64,000 nt of DNA, from positions 69,931 to 133,930 of the forward strand of contig CAZYYU010000002.1 of assembly GCA_964651735.1 (NCBI GenBank), read 5' to 3'. Origin of the DNA: an uncultured Gammaproteobacteria bacterium (GTDB lineage Bacteria; Pseudomonadota; Gammaproteobacteria; CAZYYU01). The first letter of the stretch is position 1, and each line of letters opens with the position of its first letter. This document shows, piece after piece, positions 2 to 44,068 of the stretch. The position numbers and the translations under genes are program-made. The notes below the pieces were generated by a model. The model saw only the letters and a program-made list of their open reading frames with translations. It did no database searches and was not told the DNA's origin.

Positions 2-2014
2 TCGGAATGTCTAGAGCTGCTTAAAGCTTACTTGAAAAAACGAAGGTTGGAAAAAAGCCAAGCTATCGGTTTGGATTTGACGGATCCTCAATTAGCAGAA
101 TTCCAAGTATATATTGATCGATATTTTGATCTTTCACCTGAAAACGATGAGGCAACTCTAAGCCTTCCTCAGAATTTACAATTACTTATCCTTCAAATGT
201 ATACATTAGCGATCAGAGCAGGAAATATAAATGTTTTGCGATTTCTTCATACTCATATAAAGCATGAAAAATACAAAGGCACACAATTTATTTCGACTCA
301 ATTACGTGACTGTTCTAGTGATTTTCTAAAGTCAGTCGTAGAGATGCTAGATAATGCAGGAGAAAATCTTAGTCAAGCGCCTGAGCTTCTCAGTGCAGTG
401 TATAGCCATTACAAAATTAACAGAAATTTAGATACGTTTAAGTATTTAAAGGAAAGAGGAGTTGATCTCAATCAAACTATTACTTATGGATATAGTCAAA
501 CGACTCTTGCTGACATTTCAAAATATAGTGATATTACCTTATATAACTTATTAACTGGTAAAGATAAGACAACAGATGCATCAACTATAACAGTGCCGCC
601 AAGCGTATTTGGAGGATCTTTCGCTGAGCCACCTAAAGCTTCTTCCACAAACTTATTTGGTGGATTTGGGCTATCACACAGAGGAGATAATACGAGTCAT
701 GATTTAGAAGAAGACAAAGAAGAAATCAGACGTGCTCAAGCAGAAAGAGAGAGACGCGCTAAAGAAGATGAAAACAAACGAGCTCAAGAAGAAAGAGCCA
801 GACGTGCAGAAGAAGAAATCAGACGTGCTCATGATGCATTTAGACTTTCTAAATTAGATAATTGCAAAAAAAATGGTATTGATTTAAACGTCTTAACATT
901 AAATAATTATCGAGAATTTATTGAGCAAAATCTCAATGATACAGACCAAGATCATTTCGCTTTATTTAATAATCTTTATATTGAGGTGTTGAGTAGAAAA
1001 GATATAGAAACATTAAGATTTCTTCACGCTAACATAATACCCTATAAATATAGAATGCACACATGGGTGCTTCCTGAATTACTCAAACTCCAAGATCCTC
1101 ACAATGGAAAATTTTTAAGGGATTGTATAAAGCTGTTTTTTGAAAATAAGGAAATTAATGACGCAAATCTGTTGTCATTAGTCTATGAATTTTACCTTAT
1201 AAATAATGATCTCCAAGCACTAACTTGGCTATTTGATAATGGTTTTGATATTACTGCATTTCCAATGACATACCAAGCTTTGCTTGCAAGAGCTCAAAAA
1301 GACGGTAAAAAGGAATTTGCTGATTTCATCTCTTCTAAAAATAAAACAGCGTTGAGCGAAAATGAATCTGAGGAAGATCCTAAGCCACCGCTTCCTAAAG
1401 ATCCAAATAAAGGTCATAGTAAAAAACATGATAGTGAAGACAAGGAAGAGGTTGTGCCAGCTGTTAATTTTTTCCCCATAATCAAAAAGCCACACTGGAC
1501 TGCTTTTGGTTTCATGCCTAAGGTTAAACCACCTCAAATCGCTGCTTTTGTATCTCAATTAGATCACAATCACGCGAAGTTAAATTTGTCGGATGCATCA
1601 GAAAACGTTCAAAATGCTTATGCCAATCTTGTTAAATATGGTGCCAAACTTTCTTTTGAGGCTTCAAAAATAAAGGAGAAAGATCAATCTAAAAAGAGTT
1701 CAATCGCTTTAAAATCAAAAATAACGGCATTGAATCATTTTATCAACATCATTTTAAGTCAATCTGACTTAAGCAGCGCCAAAGCCATTGAAAGCATCAG
1801 AAATGCCTATTTACACTTAGAGCGTCATGATGAAAATCGTGGTACTGGTTTATATATTGTTCATTCGATGATAAAAGGTTTGACCTTTGAAGATGAGGAT
1901 GGTAATGAGCAATATGTGATTTCTAAAGTCGGTGAATTAGCGGCACTTTTCATGCAAGCTATTGATGAGCCTGTGGCTGTAGAAGAAGATGAAATCAGCG
2001 AACTTAGAGTGTGA
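2..2014 (+). CDS. Large hypothetical protein, 5'-partial (frame is open to the window edge). Two duplicated ~100-aa modules are separated by an Arg/Glu coiled-coil. Effector-like.
   Basis: The frame of ORF 32..2014 has no stop back to nt 2, and the only in-window start is a TTG at 32. Modules '...NINVLRFLHTHIKHEKYK...FLKSVVEML...' and '...DIETLRFLHANIIPYKYR...FLRDCIKLF...' are paralogous. The tract EEIRRAQAERERRAKEDENKRAQEERARRAEEEIRRA lies between them. The C-terminus is Glu-rich. Confidence 0.6.
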   Translation, partial: SECLELLKAYLKKRRLEKSQAIGLDLTDPQLAEFQVYIDRYFDLSPENDEATLSLPQNLQLLILQMYTLAIRAGNINVLRFLHTHIKHEKYKGTQFISTQLRDCSSDFLKSVVEMLDNAGENLSQAPELLSAVYSHYKINRNLDTFKYLKERGVDLNQTITYGYSQTTLADISKYSDITLYNLLTGKDKTTDASTITVPPSVFGGSFAEPPKASSTNLFGGFGLSHRGDNTSHDLEEDKEEIRRAQAERERRAKEDENKRAQEERARRAEEEIRRAHDAFRLSKLDNCKKNGIDLNVLTLNNYREFIEQNLNDTDQDHFALFNNLYIEVLSRKDIETLRFLHANIIPYKYRMHTWVLPELLKLQDPHNGKFLRDCIKLFFENKEINDANLLSLVYEFYLINNDLQALTWLFDNGFDITAFPMTYQALLARAQKDGKKEFADFISSKNKTALSENESEEDPKPPLPKDPNKGHSKKHDSEDKEEVVPAVNFFPIIKKPHWTAFGFMPKVKPPQIAAFVSQLDHNHAKLNLSDASENVQNAYANLVKYGAKLSFEASKIKEKDQSKKSSIALKSKITALNHFINIILSQSDLSSAKAIESIRNAYLHLERHDENRGTGLYIVHSMIKGLTFEDEDGNEQYVISKVGELAALFMQAIDEPVAVEEDEISELRV

Positions 2015-2015
2015 G

Positions 2016-2906
2016 TCAGAAGGTCCACCCGAAATTTGCTAGCAATAGATAAGTGCTGCGAGTTTGATGACCAAATAAATGTTGCGAGGCTGGTAATCCT
2101 AAGCCCAGCTGAGCAACTATTTTTGGGGTGGAAAACCACAATGAAGGAGTCACATAGATGGTATTGCCTCCAGAATTTTCATCACGTACGCCTTTGATCC
2201 TATCTTTTTCAATATAAATACCATCCACTTCAATCATCCACGCCACTATACATTTGGAAGGAATGCCAAGAATATTTCTTCCAAATCCGCCTTGATATAA
2301 AAATTGATTGCCAAATTTTGTGCCCTGATTAGAGCTTGTGAATAAAACACCATAAGAACTAAAACCAAACCAATCTGTATACATACGATTTATGGTTGCA
2401 CCTAAAAAAATAGTTGGAGAGCCAAAACCTGTTGGAGGTTGTTTTTTAGTTGAACCTGTGGGAATAGTTGTATTAGCAAGTACTGTTGCTTCCTCCATAT
2501 ACTGCAAAGTGCTTTTAACATAAAAAGCATATTCAAATTGCAAAGAGAAATCCTCTAAACCCGAAGATCGCTGTTGATCTTTTTTATAACTTGCCGCAAC
2601 AGGCGTGTTAACAAAAATAGAAAATTGATCCGTCACTCCATATAATATGGCTGGAATAACATCAACAAAATAATTCTCCCCCTCACCAAACTTATCAACA
2701 AAAAGAAATACCTGAGTTTGGTTTTTGTTGATAATGTTTTCCCCAATACTGACTAATGGCCCAGGTTGCTGAGAAGTAGGCAAAGCATAATTACCCACAT
2801 TCGGAGGTACTTCATCTTTCGCCAAACTGTTCAAAGGCAAAATCAAAGCAACTAACAGAGGGGTCAAACCGAGCTTGTTTAAAAAATTTCTCATAAAATC
2901 AAACAA
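2016..2906 (-). CDS. Outer-membrane beta-barrel protein with a signal peptide; possibly MetA-pathway/phenol-degradation-like transporter family.
   Basis: N-terminal signal peptide (MRNFLNKLGLTPLLVALILPLNSLA). Alternating beta-strand-like composition rich in G/Y/F. C-terminal ...NFGWTF ends in an aromatic residue, as in OMPs. Start is TTG 2906 (GGAGG 4 nt upstream) or ATG 2894. The family name is a guess. Confidence 0.6.
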   Translation of the reverse strand: MFDFMRNFLNKLGLTPLLVALILPLNSLAKDEVPPNVGNYALPTSQQPGPLVSIGENIINKNQTQVFLFVDKFGEGENYFVDVIPAILYGVTDQFSIFVNTPVAASYKKDQQRSSGLEDFSLQFEYAFYVKSTLQYMEEATVLANTTIPTGSTKKQPPTGFGSPTIFLGATINRMYTDWFGFSSYGVLFTSSNQGTKFGNQFLYQGGFGRNILGIPSKCIVAWMIEVDGIYIEKDRIKGVRDENSGGNTIYVTPSLWFSTPKIVAQLGLGLPASQHLFGHQTRSTYLLLANFGWTF

Positions 2907-2973
2907 TTAGCCTCCTCATCTTGCGGTGTCAAACCAGGCTTCTCATTATTGCGCATCTTCCAGCATCTCCAAA
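2861..2973. repeat. Partial (left-arm) copy of a ~200-bp palindromic MITE-like repeat; overlaps the 5' end of the OMP gene.
   Basis: GGGTCAAACCGAGC..TTTAAAAAA..AAATCAA..TTAGCC..CATCTTGCGGTGTCAAACCA aligns with the left arms at 2974 and 4133. Confidence 0.75.
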
Positions 2974-3183
2974 GGGGTCAAACCGAGCCTCTTTAGAAAA
3001 AACCTCATTAAATCAACTACTTAGCCTTCCCATCTTGCGGTGTCAAACCACGCTTCTTTATATTGTGCATCTTATCAGATAAGATGCGTGGTTGAAGACG
3101 GCCTGATAAACGTCCTAAGCAATTGATTTAATTGAACTTATTGTAAAGAGGCTCGGTTAGACCCCCTCCTCTTGACCCCCTCC
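2974..3183. repeat. Full copy of the ~200-bp long-palindrome MITE-like repeat.
   Basis: Left arm GGGGTCAAACCGAGCC... and right arm ...GGCTCGGTTAGACCCCC are inverted complements. Central hairpin is GCATCTTATCAGATAAGATGC. The end is duplicated (GACCCCCTCC at 3160-3169 and 3174-3183). Confidence 0.8.
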
Positions 3184-3184
3184 A

Positions 3185-4072
3185 CTACACTCCTAAAGTT
3201 TGCATCAAATAGTCGTGCATATCCTTTTGAATATTAGAGAGTGATAGGCTTATATCCTCCAACATTTCATCAGAGATTTTTAACTCATCTTTATATTCTC
3301 TGAGAAGATTAAGAAAATAATTCACATCCATAGAATTCAGAAAATTATTATATTCATGTTCAGGAAATAAATGTTTGATGCTAATTTCAATTTGATCAGC
3401 ATTTGAACGGATAAATAATCTTTTCCCAAATTTCGGGTTTGCATTTACGCGGTCACAAAATTGCTTGATGGAAGCAGCGGATTCTCCATGAAGCTTGATT
3501 TGAGTACATCTGTAGGTCTCTCCAAAAATAGAAATTCCGCTAAATAAATTTTCTCCTTCACAAACATAGTCAATTTTTCGACATCCAGTTGCTACAGTTT
3601 TTAAATCAAGGTTAACTGATCGTTTCCAAGATCCGTAGTTTTTTGCAGGATTCCATTTATCAACCAAAGGAATAATTTGATCATTTACCACAGATTTCAT
3701 ACCCGCGCTAAATTCACCGAGATCTTTTTCAATAGCAGCAAGAAGGTTTTTATACCCTTTCTGACTGACCAATTTACCTATGGACAAGGGTAAAAGATTT
3801 CCAAAAGATAATCCTAAAGGCATTTCATCTGGTGTATTTCTCGGTTTTACCTGCAAAGTGGGAGCTACAACACGATTATAAAATCGAAGAGCAGCATTTC
3901 TATTTTTAAAAACTAAGCATAATTCCGGAAAAAAATGAGAAAAGACGCTAAAGTAAAGGCATTCTACTTCAGAGTGATCTTTTAATTGATAACGATAGTT
4001 ATAAATGTTTGAACCCTGTTCACTTCTCGAATGAACAGGAGATTTCTCTTCAACTCTGACCCATTTACTCAT
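3185..4072 (-). CDS. Hypothetical protein (295 aa); cargo gene bracketed by two same-orientation copies of the MITE-like repeat.
   Basis: Long ORF with an ATG start and a GAGGG Shine-Dalgarno (SD) sequence about 8 nt upstream. No recognisable motif. The stop codon lies 1 nt from the repeat end. Confidence 0.6.
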   Translation of the reverse strand: MSKWVRVEEKSPVHSRSEQGSNIYNYRYQLKDHSEVECLYFSVFSHFFPELCLVFKNRNAALRFYNRVVAPTLQVKPRNTPDEMPLGLSFGNLLPLSIGKLVSQKGYKNLLAAIEKDLGEFSAGMKSVVNDQIIPLVDKWNPAKNYGSWKRSVNLDLKTVATGCRKIDYVCEGENLFSGISIFGETYRCTQIKLHGESAASIKQFCDRVNANPKFGKRLFIRSNADQIEISIKHLFPEHEYNNFLNSMDVNYFLNLLREYKDELKISDEMLEDISLSLSNIQKDMHDYLMQTLGV

Positions 4073-4132
4073 AATAATACCCTCTAATTTTTATTTATAC
4101 CTAGATTTTGTCATTTTACATAAGGGTGATAT

Positions 4133-4332
4133 GGGGGTCAAACCGAGCCTGTTAAAAAAAATTTCCATTAAATCAACCAATTAGCCATCTCATCTTGCGG
4201 TGTCAAACCACGCTTCTTTATATAAACTGTCTTGCAAAATAAGAAGCCTTGTTGAAGACCGCAAGCTAAACGCTTTAACCAGTTGATTTAAATGAATTAA
4301 TTTTTAAGAAGCTCGGTTTGACCCCCTCCCCC
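4133..4332. repeat. Full copy of the ~200-bp long-palindrome MITE-like repeat.
   Basis: GGGGGTCAAACCGAGCC...CATCTTGCGGTGTCAAACCACGCTTCTTTATAT...GTTGAAGACCGCAAG...GCTCGGTTTGACCCCC. Same orientation as the copy at 2974-3183. Confidence 0.8.
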
Positions 4333-4346
4333 TTAAGCCGTATAAT
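4318..4346 (+). promoter_or_regulatory. Sigma70-type promoter for gatCAB; the -35 box lies inside the repeat terminus.
   Basis: TTGACC (4318-4323), an exact 17-nt spacer, then TATAAT (4341-4346). An AAGGA SD sits at 4366-4370 and the gatC ATG at 4377. Confidence 0.5.
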
Positions 4347-4376: not shown

Positions 4377-4694
4377 ATGTCCATTACTGAAAAACAAGTT
4401 CGTGAAGTTGCTCACCTCGCCAGGCTTGGTGTGAGTGATGCTGAGGTACAAGAACACGTTGAAAGCTTAACCAAAATTCTGGACATCATTGAGCAGATGG
4501 CATCAATAAATACCCAAGGCGTGACAGCCATGTCTCACCCCATAGAGTCTTATCATGTGGACCACAAACAAGAAAAAGTTGAACTCCCCTTGCGAGAGGA
4601 TTCAATTACTGAAGTGAATGAACGTGAAGATTTCCAAAAAATTGCACCTTTGGCTAAACATGGTTTGTATTTAGTTCCACAAGTTATCGAATAA
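4377..4694 (+). CDS. gatC: Asp/Glu-tRNA(Asn/Gln) amidotransferase subunit C.
   Basis: ~100-aa protein with the typical GatC N-terminus ([17 protein letters not shown]), directly upstream of gatA and gatB. Confidence 0.95.
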
Positions 4695-4705
4695 TCGAGT
4701 ACAAT

Positions 4706-6160
4706 ATGCACACAAAATCACTGGCAGATTTATCTAAAAGTCTAGAAAAAAAAGAATTTTCTAGTCGTGAACTCACTGAACATTTTTTAAATAGAATTAA
4801 AAAATTTGATGAATCACTTAATTGTTTTATTACTGTAACTGCGGATCTGGCGCTTCAACAAGCAGATGCTGCAGATAAAAAACGCCAATCTGGAAATGCA
4901 ACTCCACTCACAGGAATTCCAATCGCTCAAAAAGACATTTTTTGCACTAAAGGAATAAAAACCTCTTGCGGCTCTAAAATGTTAGATAACTTTATCTCAC
5001 CTTATGATGCGACCTTGATTCAACATTACAACAATGCTGGAATGGTCATGTTGGGCAAAACCAATATGGATGAATTTGCCATGGGTTCATCTAACGAAAA
5101 TAGTTACTACGGCCCAGTTAAAAATCCCTGGGATCTTGAACGAGTAGCTGGTGGTTCCTCGGGAGGTTCTGCCGCGACAGTTGCATCACGACTTGCACCC
5201 GCAGCTACTGGTACTGACACCGGTGGTTCTATACGTCAGCCAGCAGCATTATGTGGAATTACCGGATTAAAACCTACCTATGGCCGCGTATCACGTTATG
5301 GAATGATTGCTTTTGCATCAAGTTTAGATCAAGGTGGTCCCTTTGCCCAAACAGCAGAAGATGTGGCAATGCTATTAAATCCTATCGCAAAATACGATCC
5401 TAAAGATTCCACAAGCATTAACACCCCTGCTCCAGATTATACCAAAACACTAAATGACTCTATTAAAGGACTTAAAATAGGATTACCTAAAGAATATTTT
5501 AGTGAAGGCTTAGACCCAAAAATGGCAGCTCTGATTAATTCAGCCATCGATGAATATAAAAAACTGGGTGTTGAATTTAAAGAAATTAGTTTAAAAAATT
5601 CTAATATGGCAATTCCTGCATATTATGTGGTTGCACCTGCAGAATGCTCATCAAATTTAGCGCGATTTGATGGCGTGCGTTATGGTTATCGCTGTGATGA
5701 GCCTAAAAATTTAGAGGATTTATATAAGCGTACTCGTCAAGAAGGCTTTGGTCATGAAGTAAAACGTCGAATCATGATTGGGACTTATGCACTATCAGCA
5801 GGTTATTTTGATGCTTATTATTTACAAGCACAAAAAATTCGCCAACTCATCAGTGATGATTTTCAAAAAGCCTTTAAAGAAGTGGATTTTATTTTAGGAC
5901 CCACTTCTCCCTGCACCGCTTTTAAAATTGGCGAAAAATCCAATGATCCAGTAAGCATGTATTTATCCGATATCTATACCATATCTGTTAATCTAGCAGG
6001 TTTGCCTGGATTATCGATGCCTACTGGTTTTATCGATAATTTACCCGTCGGATTACAACTGATTGGAAATTATTTTACAGAAAGCAAACTTTTAAATGTC
6101 GCTCACCAATATCAACAGGTGACTGATTGGCATCAACAAATGCCTGATAACTATCGGTAG
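4706..6160 (+). CDS. gatA: Asp/Glu-tRNA(Asn/Gln) amidotransferase subunit A.
   Basis: Amidase signature ([21 protein letters not shown]); correct length and operon position. Confidence 0.97.
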
Positions 6161-7600
6161 GTGAATAACATGGAATGGGAAACAGTAATTGGTCTTGAAG
6201 TACACGTACAATTAGCCACAAAAACAAAAATATTTTCAGGTGCGCCAACCGCTTATGGTGCAGAACCCAATACCCAAGCCTGCACGATTGATCTTGGCTA
6301 TCCTGGAGTCTTGCCCGTATTAAATAAAGAAGTGGTACGAATGGCAGTGATGTTAGGCCTAAGTTTAGAAGCTGAAATTTCACATCATTCTGTCTTTGCA
6401 CGAAAAAACTATTTTTATCCAGACCTTCCCAAAGGTTACCAAATTTCTCAATTCGAATATCCTATTGTTGGAAAAGGTCACCTAGATATACAAATAAATA
6501 ATACAGTAAAACGCGTTGGAATTACTCGTGCTCATTTAGAAGAAGATGCTGGAAAATCGTTGCATGAAGATTTTAAAGGGATGTCTGGCATAGATTTAAA
6601 TCGTGCAGGCACGCCCCTACTTGAAATTGTTTCAGAACCCGATCTGCGTTCCGCTGAAGAAGCCGTGGCTTATTTAAAAACCTTACACAGTTTAGTGCGT
6701 TATTTAGGTATCAGTGATGGAAATATGCAGGAAGGCTCCTTTCGCTGTGATGCAAATGTATCTGTACGAAAAAAAGGCTCGAAGGAATTTGGAACTCGGG
6801 CTGAAATCAAAAACGTGAATTCTTTCCGATTCGTAGAACGTGCAATTAATTATGAAGTGGAACGCCAAATTAATGTGATTGAAAATGGTGGAACTATCGT
6901 ACAAGAAACACGATTATACGACTCCGCAAAAAATGAAACCCGATCTATGCGTACAAAAGAAGCCGCCAACGATTACCGTTATTTTCCAGATCCCGATTTA
7001 TTGCCTTTAGAAATTGATGATGACTACATTACTACTCAAAAAAAGCGAATGCCAGAATTACCCTGGGAAAAGAAAAATCGTTTTATGGAACAATTCAATT
7101 TAAGCAGCTACGATGCTACAGTACTTTCAGCCACCAAAGAATCAGCAGAATATTTCGAAAATACCGTAAAAGCCAGCAAAGCAGAAGCAAAATTAGTCGC
7201 AAACTGGATCGCCGGAGATCTCGCCGCCCTACTCAATAAAAATAACCTCGATATTCAAAACTCTCCAGTAAGTTCTGAACAACTCGCACAAATGCTAGAT
7301 CGCATTACCGACAATACCATCTCGGGAAAAATCGCAAAAACCGTTTTTGAAGCCATGTGGAACCAAGAAGGCTCCGCTGATGAAATCATCGAAAAACAAG
7401 GCCTAAAACAAATCACTGATACTGGTGCTATCGATAAAATCATCGATGAAATCATCGCTGCAAATCCCGAACAAGTAAAAAACTATAAAGCAGGAAACGA
7501 AAAACTATTTGGATACTTTGTAGGACAAGCCATGAAAGCCACTCAAGGAAAAGCGAACCCTGCTCAAGTGAATGAGCTTCTAAAAAAGAAATTGTCATAA
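6161..7600 (+). CDS. gatB: Asp/Glu-tRNA(Asn/Gln) amidotransferase subunit B.
   Basis: [14 protein letters not shown]-terminus and the RCDANVS motif; abuts the gatA stop. Confidence 0.97.
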
Positions 7601-41446: not shown

Positions 41447-44068
41447 TTAGCCTAATGCTTTTGATACCTTTTCATACACATCACTCGATAAAGTTTTAAC
41501 CGACGCCATGTGTTGAAGTTGTTTTCTCATCAAAGCTTGGCGATGGGCATCAAATTTGCGCCATCGAATTAAGGGATCTACCAAACGTGCCGCCACTTGC
41601 GGATTAAATTTATCGATGTTGAGTACTTGTTCACCGACAAAATGATACCCCGCCCCATCCGCTTGATGAAAATGCAGATAATTATTATTCGCAAAAGCCA
41701 CCAAGAGAGAATAAACCCGATTAGGATTTTTTATATCGAAAAAGGAATTATTCATCAGCAATTTTACTTTATCCAAGGTTTGAGGCAATGTTGATGTGGC
41801 TTGTATAGCAAACCATTTGTCCAATAATAATGGATTGTTTTTTCGACCCTCAAAAAATTCTTCATACATTTGTGAACGTTCAGCACACTCAATATCTTTT
41901 AAAGCAATTAACGCACCCATCACATCGGTTAAATTATTGGCAGTTAAAAACTGTTGATAACACATATCCCAAATATCAGAATCATCTAGTGCAGCCAAAT
42001 ACCACAAACAAATATTTTTCAAACTGCGCCGCCCCATCGATTCCGCATCTAATTTATACAATCCATTTTCCTGATTATCTTTATAAAACTCAGCGAAATG
42101 CTCTTGCAGTCGATTTGCCAAATCACGCTTTAAAACTTCACGCACATAATAAATAGCATCCACATCGGCAACGTCCATTAACTCAATTAAATACGCTGGA
42201 CTTGGCAGGGATATTATTTCAGTAATAAAAGATTTTTCTAAAGAGGGATTTTCCAACACACTGGCGTAGGCATTTGCAAATTCATAAGGAACGCTAATAT
42301 CATTCCCTTTCTGATGCTCGGCAATTAATTTAAACATTACTCGACAGGCATATTGCTGAGCCGCGTCCCATCGATTAAAACCATCACTATCATTTCCCAT
42401 CAAAAATATGAGCTCTTCATCAGAATAAGGATAGTGTAATTTCACCGGTGCTGAAAAATGTCGTAACAAAGAAGGAATTGGTTTGGTTTTGACTTTTTCA
42501 AAAGTAAAGGATTGTTTTTTTTCAGTAACATTCAAAACAGAAGGTCTTTTATTTTTTTCATCACCTGAAATAATGAGTGGAATATCATCTCCATTTTCAT
42601 TGACCAATCCCACTGTTAGCGGAATATGAAAAGGTTCTTTCTTAGATTGAGTGATATGCAAGCTAAAGGTTTTATCCTTTTCATTATATTCGCTGCTGAC
42701 ATCTACCACAGGTGTTCCTGCCTCATCATACCATCGTCGAAATTGTGTTAAATCCACGCCTCCCACTTCTTCCATTACATCCACAAAATCTTCGGTGGTG
42801 ACAGCTTTTCCATCAAATCGTTTAAAATATTCATTCATTGCTTGCTTAAATTTATTTTCACCAATAATCGTCTGAATCATGCGAATCACTTCAGATCCTT
42901 TATTGTAGACAGTCACCGTATAAAAATTATTAATTTCAATATAAGATTTGGGACGAATTGGATGAGACATTGGTCCTGCATCTTGTGCAAATTGTGAATT
43001 ACGAATCACCTGAACATCATTAATTCTTTTTACCGCCTGTGATGTCATATCTGCCGTGAAATTTTGATCCCTAAAAATAGTTAATCCTTCTTTTAAGGTA
43101 ATTTGAAACCAATCACGAACCGTAACTCGATTACCAGACCAATTATGAAAATATTCATGACCAATCACACTTTGAATGCCCACATAATCTGCGTCAGTCG
43201 CGGTATCTGGTCTTGCTAATATATATTTATCATTAAAAATATTTAAACCTTTGTTTTCCATTGCTCCCATATTGAAATCGCTAACAGCAACAATCATATA
43301 AATATTTAAATCATATTCACGATGATAAGTTTCCTCATCCCACTTCATTGCTCGTTTTAATGAATCCATAGCATGAGCTGCTTGATCTACATTGCCCTTC
43401 TCAACATAAATTTCCAGAGCAATTTCTCGATCTGACATTGTTATAAAAGAATCTTGTAAACACTCATAATCTCCAGCAACCAAGGCAAATAAATAACAAG
43501 GTTTTAAAGAAGGATCTTCCCATTTCACCCAATATCGCCCATCACCCAAATCTTTTTGATCAATTCTATTTCCATTTGACAATAAAACAGGATAGCGTTC
43601 TTTATCTGCTGTTATAGTGGTGGTAAATCGAGTTAATACATCGGGACGATCGGGAAAATATGTGATACGTCTAAAGCCTTGAGCCTCACACTGTGTACAA
43701 TAGTTGCCTCTTGAAGTGTATAAGCCCGTTAGTGCTTTATTTTCCTGGGGTTTAATACGAACACTGGTTTCTAGAATACATTGGTCAGGCAGCTCAAAAA
43801 TCGTTAATGTCTCGGCATTGACTTTATATTTGCCCTTAGGCAACTCATGGCCATCCAGATAAACACTGATCAATTCCATCTTCTCCCCGTTGAGCACTAA
43901 TGGGGACGTTTTGGCCCCAGTTTTAGAGGCTCGTTCTAGGTGCAATATTGTATTGACTATGGTATAATCATCTTTTAAATCGAAATGTAGATAAACATTA
44001 TTGATAACATAGTCTAGTGGTTTGTAGTCATCTAAATAGATCACTGTTGTGTTAGTAGCATTAGCCAT
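41447..44068 (-). CDS. pepN: Aminopeptidase N (M1 family).
   Basis: GAMENKGLNIF exopeptidase motif and the HEYFHNWSGNRVT zinc motif. ATG 44068 (MANATNTTVIYLDDYKP) with a GGAGTG SD is preferred over the track start 44155. Confidence 0.93.
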   Translation of the reverse strand: MANATNTTVIYLDDYKPLDYVINNVYLHFDLKDDYTIVNTILHLERASKTGAKTSPLVLNGEKMELISVYLDGHELPKGKYKVNAETLTIFELPDQCILETSVRIKPQENKALTGLYTSRGNYCTQCEAQGFRRITYFPDRPDVLTRFTTTITADKERYPVLLSNGNRIDQKDLGDGRYWVKWEDPSLKPCYLFALVAGDYECLQDSFITMSDREIALEIYVEKGNVDQAAHAMDSLKRAMKWDEETYHREYDLNIYMIVAVSDFNMGAMENKGLNIFNDKYILARPDTATDADYVGIQSVIGHEYFHNWSGNRVTVRDWFQITLKEGLTIFRDQNFTADMTSQAVKRINDVQVIRNSQFAQDAGPMSHPIRPKSYIEINNFYTVTVYNKGSEVIRMIQTIIGENKFKQAMNEYFKRFDGKAVTTEDFVDVMEEVGGVDLTQFRRWYDEAGTPVVDVSSEYNEKDKTFSLHITQSKKEPFHIPLTVGLVNENGDDIPLIISGDEKNKRPSVLNVTEKKQSFTFEKVKTKPIPSLLRHFSAPVKLHYPYSDEELIFLMGNDSDGFNRWDAAQQYACRVMFKLIAEHQKGNDISVPYEFANAYASVLENPSLEKSFITEIISLPSPAYLIELMDVADVDAIYYVREVLKRDLANRLQEHFAEFYKDNQENGLYKLDAESMGRRSLKNICLWYLAALDDSDIWDMCYQQFLTANNLTDVMGALIALKDIECAERSQMYEEFFEGRKNNPLLLDKWFAIQATSTLPQTLDKVKLLMNNSFFDIKNPNRVYSLLVAFANNNYLHFHQADGAGYHFVGEQVLNIDKFNPQVAARLVDPLIRWRKFDAHRQALMRKQLQHMASVKTLSSDVYEKVSKALG

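Follow-up and report, generated by a model that had tools for sequence, protein, structure and literature searches.

A dispersed palindromic repeat family in a gammaproteobacterial genome, very probably a TIRtron spread by a single Y1 transposase

Two imperfect palindromes of about 200 nt that flank an orphan gene raise the question of what kind of element they belong to, what enzyme moves it, and whether the gene between them is part of it. They lie in a stretch of 64,000 nucleotides from an uncultured Gammaproteobacteria bacterium (GenBank assembly GCA_964651735.1, contig CAZYYU010000002.1, here C2; C2:69931-133930), which is called the window hereafter. A preliminary description, made from the sequence alone, had taken the palindromes for a mobile element resembling a miniature inverted-repeat transposable element (MITE) or for a structured-RNA repeat family, with the orphan gene as its cargo. 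Our analysis indicates that they are very probably a 'TIRtron', i.e., a REPIN-like non-autonomous family spread in trans by a single Y1 transposase of the TIRYT type (TnpA-REP subclass 2.1). This kind of element is already known; what we describe is a further member, in which an unnamed repeat family is now explained.

The window holds three copies of the repeat in one orientation, as had been proposed, but their ends had to be corrected. A single arm of the left type (GGGGTCAAACCGAGC ... GCGGTGTCAAACCAGGCTTCT; nhmmer model positions 2-101, 83 bits), formerly placed at 2861-2973, is found at 2860-2959(+) in the arm alignment; direct reading of the sequence shows that it opens with GGGGTC at 2860 and ends at about 2945-2959. 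Full copy 1 runs from 2974 to 3166(+) (nhmmer 175 bits, together with alignments) and consists of a left arm (2974-3059), a loop (about 3060-3079), and a right arm (3080-3166). Its former end, 3183, takes in a 14-nt micro-duplication of terminus and flank, GACCCCCTCC-TCTT-GACCCCCTCC, which the preliminary description had noted and repeat mapping confirmed at 3160-3183(+). Full copy 2, likewise an arm dimer, occupies 4133-4326(+) (nhmmer 187 bits; former end 4332) between the divergent orphan gene and gatC. Identity between the two full copies is about 80-83%, and the longest stretch without a difference measures 33 nt. They are indeed palindromic from end to end: in copy 2, the two 86-nt arms are 73% complementary (repeat mapping), and the single-stranded DNA (ssDNA) of this copy folds as one long hairpin (-44.4 kcal/mol, z = -9.0) that none of 200 shuffles equalled. 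The termini and inner pairings given earlier are present as well, except that the second inner string had blended letters of both copies.

An iterated nhmmer search of the whole assembly yielded 44 repeat loci on 8 contigs, comprising 28 full and 16 partial copies; the latter are mostly single arms, and several three-arm groups occur among the loci. The assembly (5.26 Mb) is mixed, with approximately 2.2 Mb at about 38% GC in 29 contigs, a fraction that includes the window's organism, and approximately 3.0 Mb at about 64% GC in 381 contigs, so taxonomic placement and completeness figures need care. All 44 loci belong to 38%-GC contigs and lie in intergenic DNA, in many cases with a stop codon 0-15 nt away; 24, 11, and 9 copies are in tandem, convergent, and divergent intergenic regions, respectively, and both orientations relative to the neighbouring genes occur. 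The motif GGGGTCAAAC has 61 sites compared with 1.9 expected by composition in 2.2 Mb, 60 of which are inside the 44 copies; for GGTGTCAAAC, 52 of 54 sites (3.1 expected on the same basis) are inside them. By these motifs the census is essentially complete. With 44 loci on 8 contigs, sharp ends, and unrelated flanks, the repeat is indeed a dispersed, discrete, and non-autonomous element family rather than a local segmental duplication.

In each full copy, two arms of 86 nt are joined head to head as a dimer, a variable loop of 20-45 nt lying between them; all arms align gap-free over the 86 nt. The arm consensus is GGGGTCAAACCGAGCC, followed by an A-rich tract, AAATCAA, and CTTGCGGTGTCAAACAAGGCTTCTT, which gives each arm two direct GGKGTCAAAC boxes and each dimer four. 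In the flanks, column identity is about 0.28; it climbs to 0.93 at the terminus and drops straight after GACCCC, and the flanks are unrelated in the alignment even between the most similar copies. Both full copies of the window belong to an asymmetric subfamily with GTTGAAGACGGC as the right inner box (in copy 1, this box stands in place of GTTTGACACCGC). Strand is well defined for this subfamily only, the score margins being mostly below 20 bits. In none of the 24 full copies inspected do the ends show a direct repeat of at least 3 nt, 2-nt matches being at chance level, and thus no target-site duplication was found. The (G)TAG that precedes some copies is not conserved, and a fold-back origin, in which the right flank would be the reverse complement of the left flank, was not seen in the copy alignment. 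Two observations concern individual loci on the window's contig. The five copies of a cluster at C2:156440-164772 are decayed (45-68 bits), with termini that vary, e.g., GAGTTTCAAACTGAAC, and could be an older subfamily or relics, and no tRNA was found beside the copy at C2:269045.

The preliminary description had recorded no transposase, which is true of the window but not of the genome. On another contig (C10), a gene at C10:42950-43933 is the sole PF01797 match in a six-frame search of the assembly. It sits exactly between a left arm (C10:42764-42867) and a right arm (43882-43985) in inverted orientation, and no other coding unit has a left arm on one side and a right arm on the other. The encoded protein (327 aa) matches Pfam Y1_Tnp (58.7 bits) and the NCBIfam model REP_Tyr_transpos, "REP-associated tyrosine transposase" (82.2 bits against a cut-off of 80), while residues 221-278 match Bac_DnaA_C (37.4 bits against a cut-off of 31.5), the C-terminal helix-turn-helix (HTH) of DnaA domain IV. 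The catalytic motifs H60-V-H62 (HUH) and Y119 (within YIHNNP) were identified, with H60, H62, and Y119 invariant across 9 homologues. The AlphaFold model of the protein (pLDDT 75.7) gave a Foldseek probability of 1.0 to ISDra2, IS200, IS608, and the TnpA-REP structure 4ER8, and its C-terminal part resembles the DNA-binding domains of DnaA (3PVP, TM 0.84-0.85, root-mean-square deviation 1.8-1.9 A; 1J1V, TM 0.77). Among the genes scanned that stand singly or in pairs between neighbouring copies, none matched a transposase family, with no search aimed at DDE families. Since the cognate transposase is of the Y1/HUH type, the repeat is of the TIRYT/RAYT type and not a classical DDE-type MITE, in line with the absence of a target-site duplication. 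Just upstream of the left arm of the transposase gene lies a separate 81-nt hairpin with a perfect stem, GATGGTGTCAAATCTTGA...TCAAGATTTGACACCATC (C10:42685-42765, equivalent to L032:6686-6766; -23.5 kcal/mol, z -8.75), which contains no box but the inner one and looks like a mini-element of two inner boxes.

The same arrangement of gene and arms recurs outside this genome. The Y1 plus DnaA_C architecture is common (3249 matches at E <= 1e-5, some of which JGI calls RayT). The closest homologue (76% identity), from an independent Logan metagenome assembly (SRR9924836), has the arms of the present family on either side, its 1.2-kb contig ending within them. A 59% homologue retains a two-box right arm, and a 45% homologue has two-box arms with further arm copies close by. 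Overall, the homologues at 59%, 45%, 41%, 41%, and 36-38% identity are flanked by inverted repeats that measure 28-87 nt; GTGTCAA opens several of these, and some arms carry two boxes. On the metagenomic contig ERZ25039546, two paralogous Y1-DnaA_C genes are 5 kb apart (L035:10001-10981 and 16075-17034), and one of them has two-box arms and extra arm copies at 15012-15062 and 15180-15255. The 36% homologue (JGI 3300050571) is accompanied by 87-nt arms that are 96.6% identical, with the downstream arm present twice (L041:9815-9901, 10974-11060, and 11108-11194), and these arms have two ACTCAAC boxes. The predicted recognition-helix region of this homologue is SETMYH, as opposed to SR-x-x-H in the homologues with GTCAA boxes, which hints at co-variation of protein and box.

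How the copies relate to one another bears on the unit that is copied and on the distance over which it spreads. Within a copy, the left and right arms share an identity of 0.71, the same as the background of all arm pairs (0.72), while left arms match the left arms of other copies at up to 0.99 and right arms match right arms at up to 0.98; these data indicate that the dimer is copied as a unit. Conservation resides in the boxes, which are almost invariant among copies, and not in base-pairing, as compensatory change was seen in only 3 of 27 consensus pairs. The copies are strongly clustered: 22 neighbouring pairs lie within 5 kb compared with 3.3 expected (0 of 5000 permutations had as many), and the densest zone comprises 12 loci around the transposase gene. 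For 14 of 23 full copies the nearest relative lies within 10 kb, and near pairs are more alike than far ones (mean identity 0.78 versus 0.72, p = 4e-4), which suggests either local spread or gene conversion between neighbours. Duplications of terminus plus flank with a period of 14-26 nt occur at 7 of 64 termini, compared with 0.4 expected from shuffled flanks and about 2 in random intergenic DNA. Such a duplication takes in the last ~8 nt of the element and 6-10 nt of unique flank, e.g., TGACCCCCTTGTAATTCA twice exactly, and the sites include C10:39920, C10:46817, C2:175427, and 3160-3183 of the window. We know of no transposition step that produces such a duplication.

The features described above agree most closely with the TIRtrons. 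Di Nocera, De Gregorio and Rocco 2013 (PMC3733652) define TIRtrons as Y1 genes with long terminal inverted repeats (TIRs) on both sides, many with GGGGWSAS, a motif common to some TIRs but not all, and report that the TIRs of some genomes make up families of moderate abundance, occurring as singles, dimers, and groups; Quentin, Siguier, Chandler and Fichant 2018 (PMC6006769) equate proteins with Y1 and Bac_DnaA_C, their TnpA-REP subclass 2.1, with the TIRYTs of Di Nocera et al. The likeness includes a Y1/HUH domain joined to a C-terminal HTH (Bac_DnaA_C here; Bac_DnaA_C, HTH_23, or HTH_28 in the class), long terminal inverted repeats instead of REP hairpins on both sides of the gene, a TIR that opens with GGGG(T)(C)A, and a dispersed family of TIRs, here 28 dimers, 16 partials, and three-arm groups. 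The terminus found here, GGGGTCAA, differs in that it matches 7 of the 8 positions of GGGGWSAS. For the present family, our analysis describes an 86-nt two-box arm, a dimer copied as a unit, the absence of a target-site duplication, spread around the transposase gene, and a recurrent micro-duplication of terminus and flank.

The REPIN-RAYT system (Bertels and Rainey 2011, PMC3116915; PDB 4ER8) is similar in its single-copy Y1 gene flanked by the associated repeat, and in its inverted dimers, which form hairpins and are copied as units, occur along with singlets, and are extragenic and clustered; the present protein also clears the NCBIfam RAYT equivalog cut-off. REPs (repetitive extragenic palindromes), however, are GTAG-tagged hairpins of 20-25 nt, whereas the arms here are 86 nt long and unstructured alone (z about 0 for a lone arm); because single arms do not fold by themselves, the system fails the definition of a REP. 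The protein also has an extra DnaA-like HTH, and 44 copies is low relative to typical REPIN populations. With IS200/IS605 elements (IS608, ISDra2; PATEs), the family shares the catalytic fold (Foldseek probability 1.0) and the absence of a target-site duplication. Those elements are multi-copy insertion sequences (ISs) with asymmetric subterminal hairpins, a guide, and a transposase of ~130-150 aa; in contrast, the present family has long symmetric inverted repeats without hairpins of their own and a single-copy gene. The QMITE1 and QMITE2 repeats of Coxiella burnetii (Wachter et al. 2018, PMC5896051) are likewise small intergenic palindromes with about 50 copies in a Legionellales genome, and they overlap gene ends and carry sigma-70-like promoters. 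They differ from the present repeat in that QMITE1 is 300-400 bp long with direct repeats of 2-3 nt, and QMITE2 has direct repeats of 7-11 nt, a GTAG REP core, and IS1111 as its target (PMC5896051). No sequence match was found between the present repeat and the Coxiella QMITEs.

If the palindromes are a TIRtron, the enzyme would nick and rejoin ssDNA at the arm termini, by analogy with the IS200/IS605 and TnpA-REP enzymes, and its HTH would recognise the iterated GGKGTCAAAC boxes, of which an arm has two and a dimer four, with new copies landing mostly within a few kb of the donor. A more specific version can be put forward only tentatively: the DnaA domain-IV HTH may have acquired a new target, iterated GKGTCAA(A)C boxes of 9-10 bp, so that the ends would be recognised as box arrays in double-stranded DNA, no substrate smaller than the 200-nt dimer would serve, and spread would be mainly in cis within a few kb. 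Such a mode would resemble DnaA at oriC or the ends of Tn7 and Mu, and not the hairpin-and-guide recognition of IS200/IS605 and RAYT, and the duplication of terminus and flank would then be the footprint of a nick, a short extension, and re-ligation.

Several points weigh against the TIRtron interpretation as a whole. There is no direct evidence of transposition, and no relatives were near enough for a comparison with empty sites. The repeat was absent from the 40 class-level genomes searched; scans of the GTDB species and of JGI metagenomes each gave one chance match only, within a coding repeat and an aminotransferase gene, respectively, and the viral contigs searched gave none. When empty sites were sought via the outer-membrane-protein (OMP)-like gene beside the single arm, six class-level orthologues (46-59% identity) were found, none of which adjoins gatCAB, meaning that synteny at this locus is lost. 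The similarity between neighbours could partly reflect gene conversion instead of local hopping; the terminus departs from GGGGWSAS at its last position, which is A and not S; and the copy number is a lower bound, as the assembly is fragmented and mixed. Because single arms lack a hairpin of their own, recognition by hairpin and guide as in IS200/IS605 cannot simply be assumed, and Quentin et al. (PMC6006769) doubted that the DnaA-like domain reads the TIRs. Furthermore, the family is old, with a median pairwise identity of 0.72 among copies and 0.965 for the youngest pair, so that its mobility may be past.

The last point leads to the alternative that the family is a fossil, in which arms and dimers spread long ago, the transposase was domesticated as a single-copy gene, and nothing moves any longer, the repeats being neutral or used by the host. 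We regard this as unlikely, but not as negligible. The low median identity, the several decayed copies at C2:156-165 kb (46-68 bits), and the single-copy transposase are in its favour, together with the description of RAYTs, in published abstracts, as vertically inherited and domesticated; yet unrelated flanks surround a few copies that are nearly identical (0.93-0.965), no catalytic residue has been lost, and the almost invariant boxes suggest continuing constraint. It is scarcely credible that the repeat is a classical MITE, i.e., an internally deleted derivative of a DDE-type IS that is moved by that IS, its link to the Y1 gene being a coincidence. A length of ~200 nt, terminal inverted repeats, and a non-coding, intergenic nature would suit such an element, but all 24 copies lack a target-site duplication, the sole gene between a left and a right arm encodes a Y1 transposase, this association of gene and arms repeats in independent homologues of 36-76% identity, and the Coxiella QMITEs, with their direct repeats or GTAG REP, are unlike the present repeat. 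This reading is largely refuted already. A resemblance of the terminus to Tn3-family inverted repeats was dropped, there being no 5-bp or other target-site duplication and a Y1 gene between the arms. A host-selected structured element, acting either as an RNA hairpin (small RNA, terminator, or mRNA stabiliser) or as an array of nucleoid-protein sites, is improbable. Although the hairpin potential of the dimer is strong, the boxes are highly conserved, and -10 boxes are enriched downstream of the termini (17 of 66), the sole Rfam match is the plant MIR7996 (26.8 bits against a cut-off of 119, E 0.079), the covariation term is just -0.24 kcal/mol with double changes in 3 of 27 pairs, and complementarity between the arms of a copy does not exceed that of randomly paired arms. 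There are no terminator-like T-runs, the copies occur in any intergenic context and orientation, and the unit of arm, transposase, and arm would be left unexplained. The proposal of a structured-RNA repeat family is not upheld, with no credible Rfam match and almost no covariation.

Whether the orphan gene travels with the repeats was the remaining part of the question. This open reading frame (ORF) at 3185-4072(-) encodes 295 aa and is enclosed by the two full copies, at a distance of 1 nt from the duplicated terminus of copy 1 and of 60 nt from copy 2, as first described; it has a Shine-Dalgarno (SD) sequence of its own, GAGGG, and a promoter-like site. It matches no Pfam or NCBIfam family, a word-indexed search found no homologue, a full HMMER scan gave marginal matches only, and no paralogue or second copy was found anywhere searched; it is probably a real lineage-specific gene. 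A composite or cassette unit, in which the two direct copies and the orphan gene form a mobile or excisable module like an integron cassette or a composite transposon, is very improbable. The outer ends (left arm from 2974, right arm to 4326) do mimic the transposase unit (1.35 kb versus 1.22 kb), and both copies share the 33-nt identical run; but the orphan gene is single, at least five other copy pairs bracket one or two mutually unrelated genes on either strand (TfoX_N with a 2-thiouracil desulfurase, PhzF, and two orphans), some of housekeeping-type families, and no integrase was seen among the bracketed genes. Bracketing is expected since the copies are so strongly clustered, and the orphan gene is a bystander of this clustering; the claim that the repeats bracket a cargo gene thus falls away. 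Deletion of the enclosed gene by recombination is possible in principle through the 33-nt run, but nothing shows that a deletion or a movement of the gene has occurred. Two specific forms of the module were rejected as well. The spacing of ~1 kb and the common orientation had suggested an array of integron-like cassettes, but the bracketed genes are unrelated, on both strands, and partly of housekeeping type; long multi-gene stretches lie between repeats, and no integrase was noticed, albeit without a search aimed at intI. A composite element carrying the orphan gene was discarded because this gene has no second copy.

The copies may nevertheless affect the genes next to them. The best-scoring promoter-like site of the locus, 4318-4346(+), matches at 11 of 12 positions and uses the right terminus of copy 2 as its -35 box (TTGACC), followed by a 17-nt spacer and the -10 box TATAAT, about 30 nt upstream of the ATG of gatC (4377). 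This gene begins the gatC-gatA-gatB operon (4377-7600(+)), downstream of copy 2, whose names were assigned by reading the translations and not by a family search. The second-best site, 4113-4141(-), matches at 10 of 12 positions; its -35 box TTGACC is the left terminus of copy 2 read outward, with a 17-nt spacer and the -10 box TAAAAT, and the orphan ATG (4072) follows about 40 nt downstream. Both termini of copy 2 thus appear to have been co-opted as outward -35 hexamers in predicted promoters for gatCAB and the orphan gene. Genome-wide, TANNNT was found at 16-18 nt from 17 of 66 termini compared with a background of 8.8% (p = 4e-5). At the other end of the locus, the OMP-like gene (2016-2906(-)) has its SD-like AGGAGG, its TTG/ATG start, and its first ~12 codons within the single arm at 2860-2959. 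These codons (MRNFLNKLGLTP) form the n-region of a signal peptide, and the signal peptides of its six orthologues (46-59% identity) are unrelated. The single arm may accordingly be read as a predicted ribosome-binding site, start codon, and first ~12 codons co-opted by this gene. Next to it, at 32-2014(+), the window encodes a candidate eukaryote-like effector, a protein of 660 aa that is internally duplicated, has a charged linker resembling a coiled coil, and gives a weak ankyrin match.

Taken as a TIRtron, the family offers a small and clean TIRYT example with one transposase gene, 44 copies, and an 86-nt two-box arm. For annotation, it means that the repeats break contigs, donate predicted -35 boxes, one of them for the essential gatCAB, and in one case appear to provide the start codon of a gene, and that the suggestion of the orphan gene as mobile cargo is removed. 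The iterated boxes shared by several homologues also bear on a question that Quentin et al. 2018 did not settle, namely whether the terminal repeats are read by the DnaA-like domain of these enzymes.

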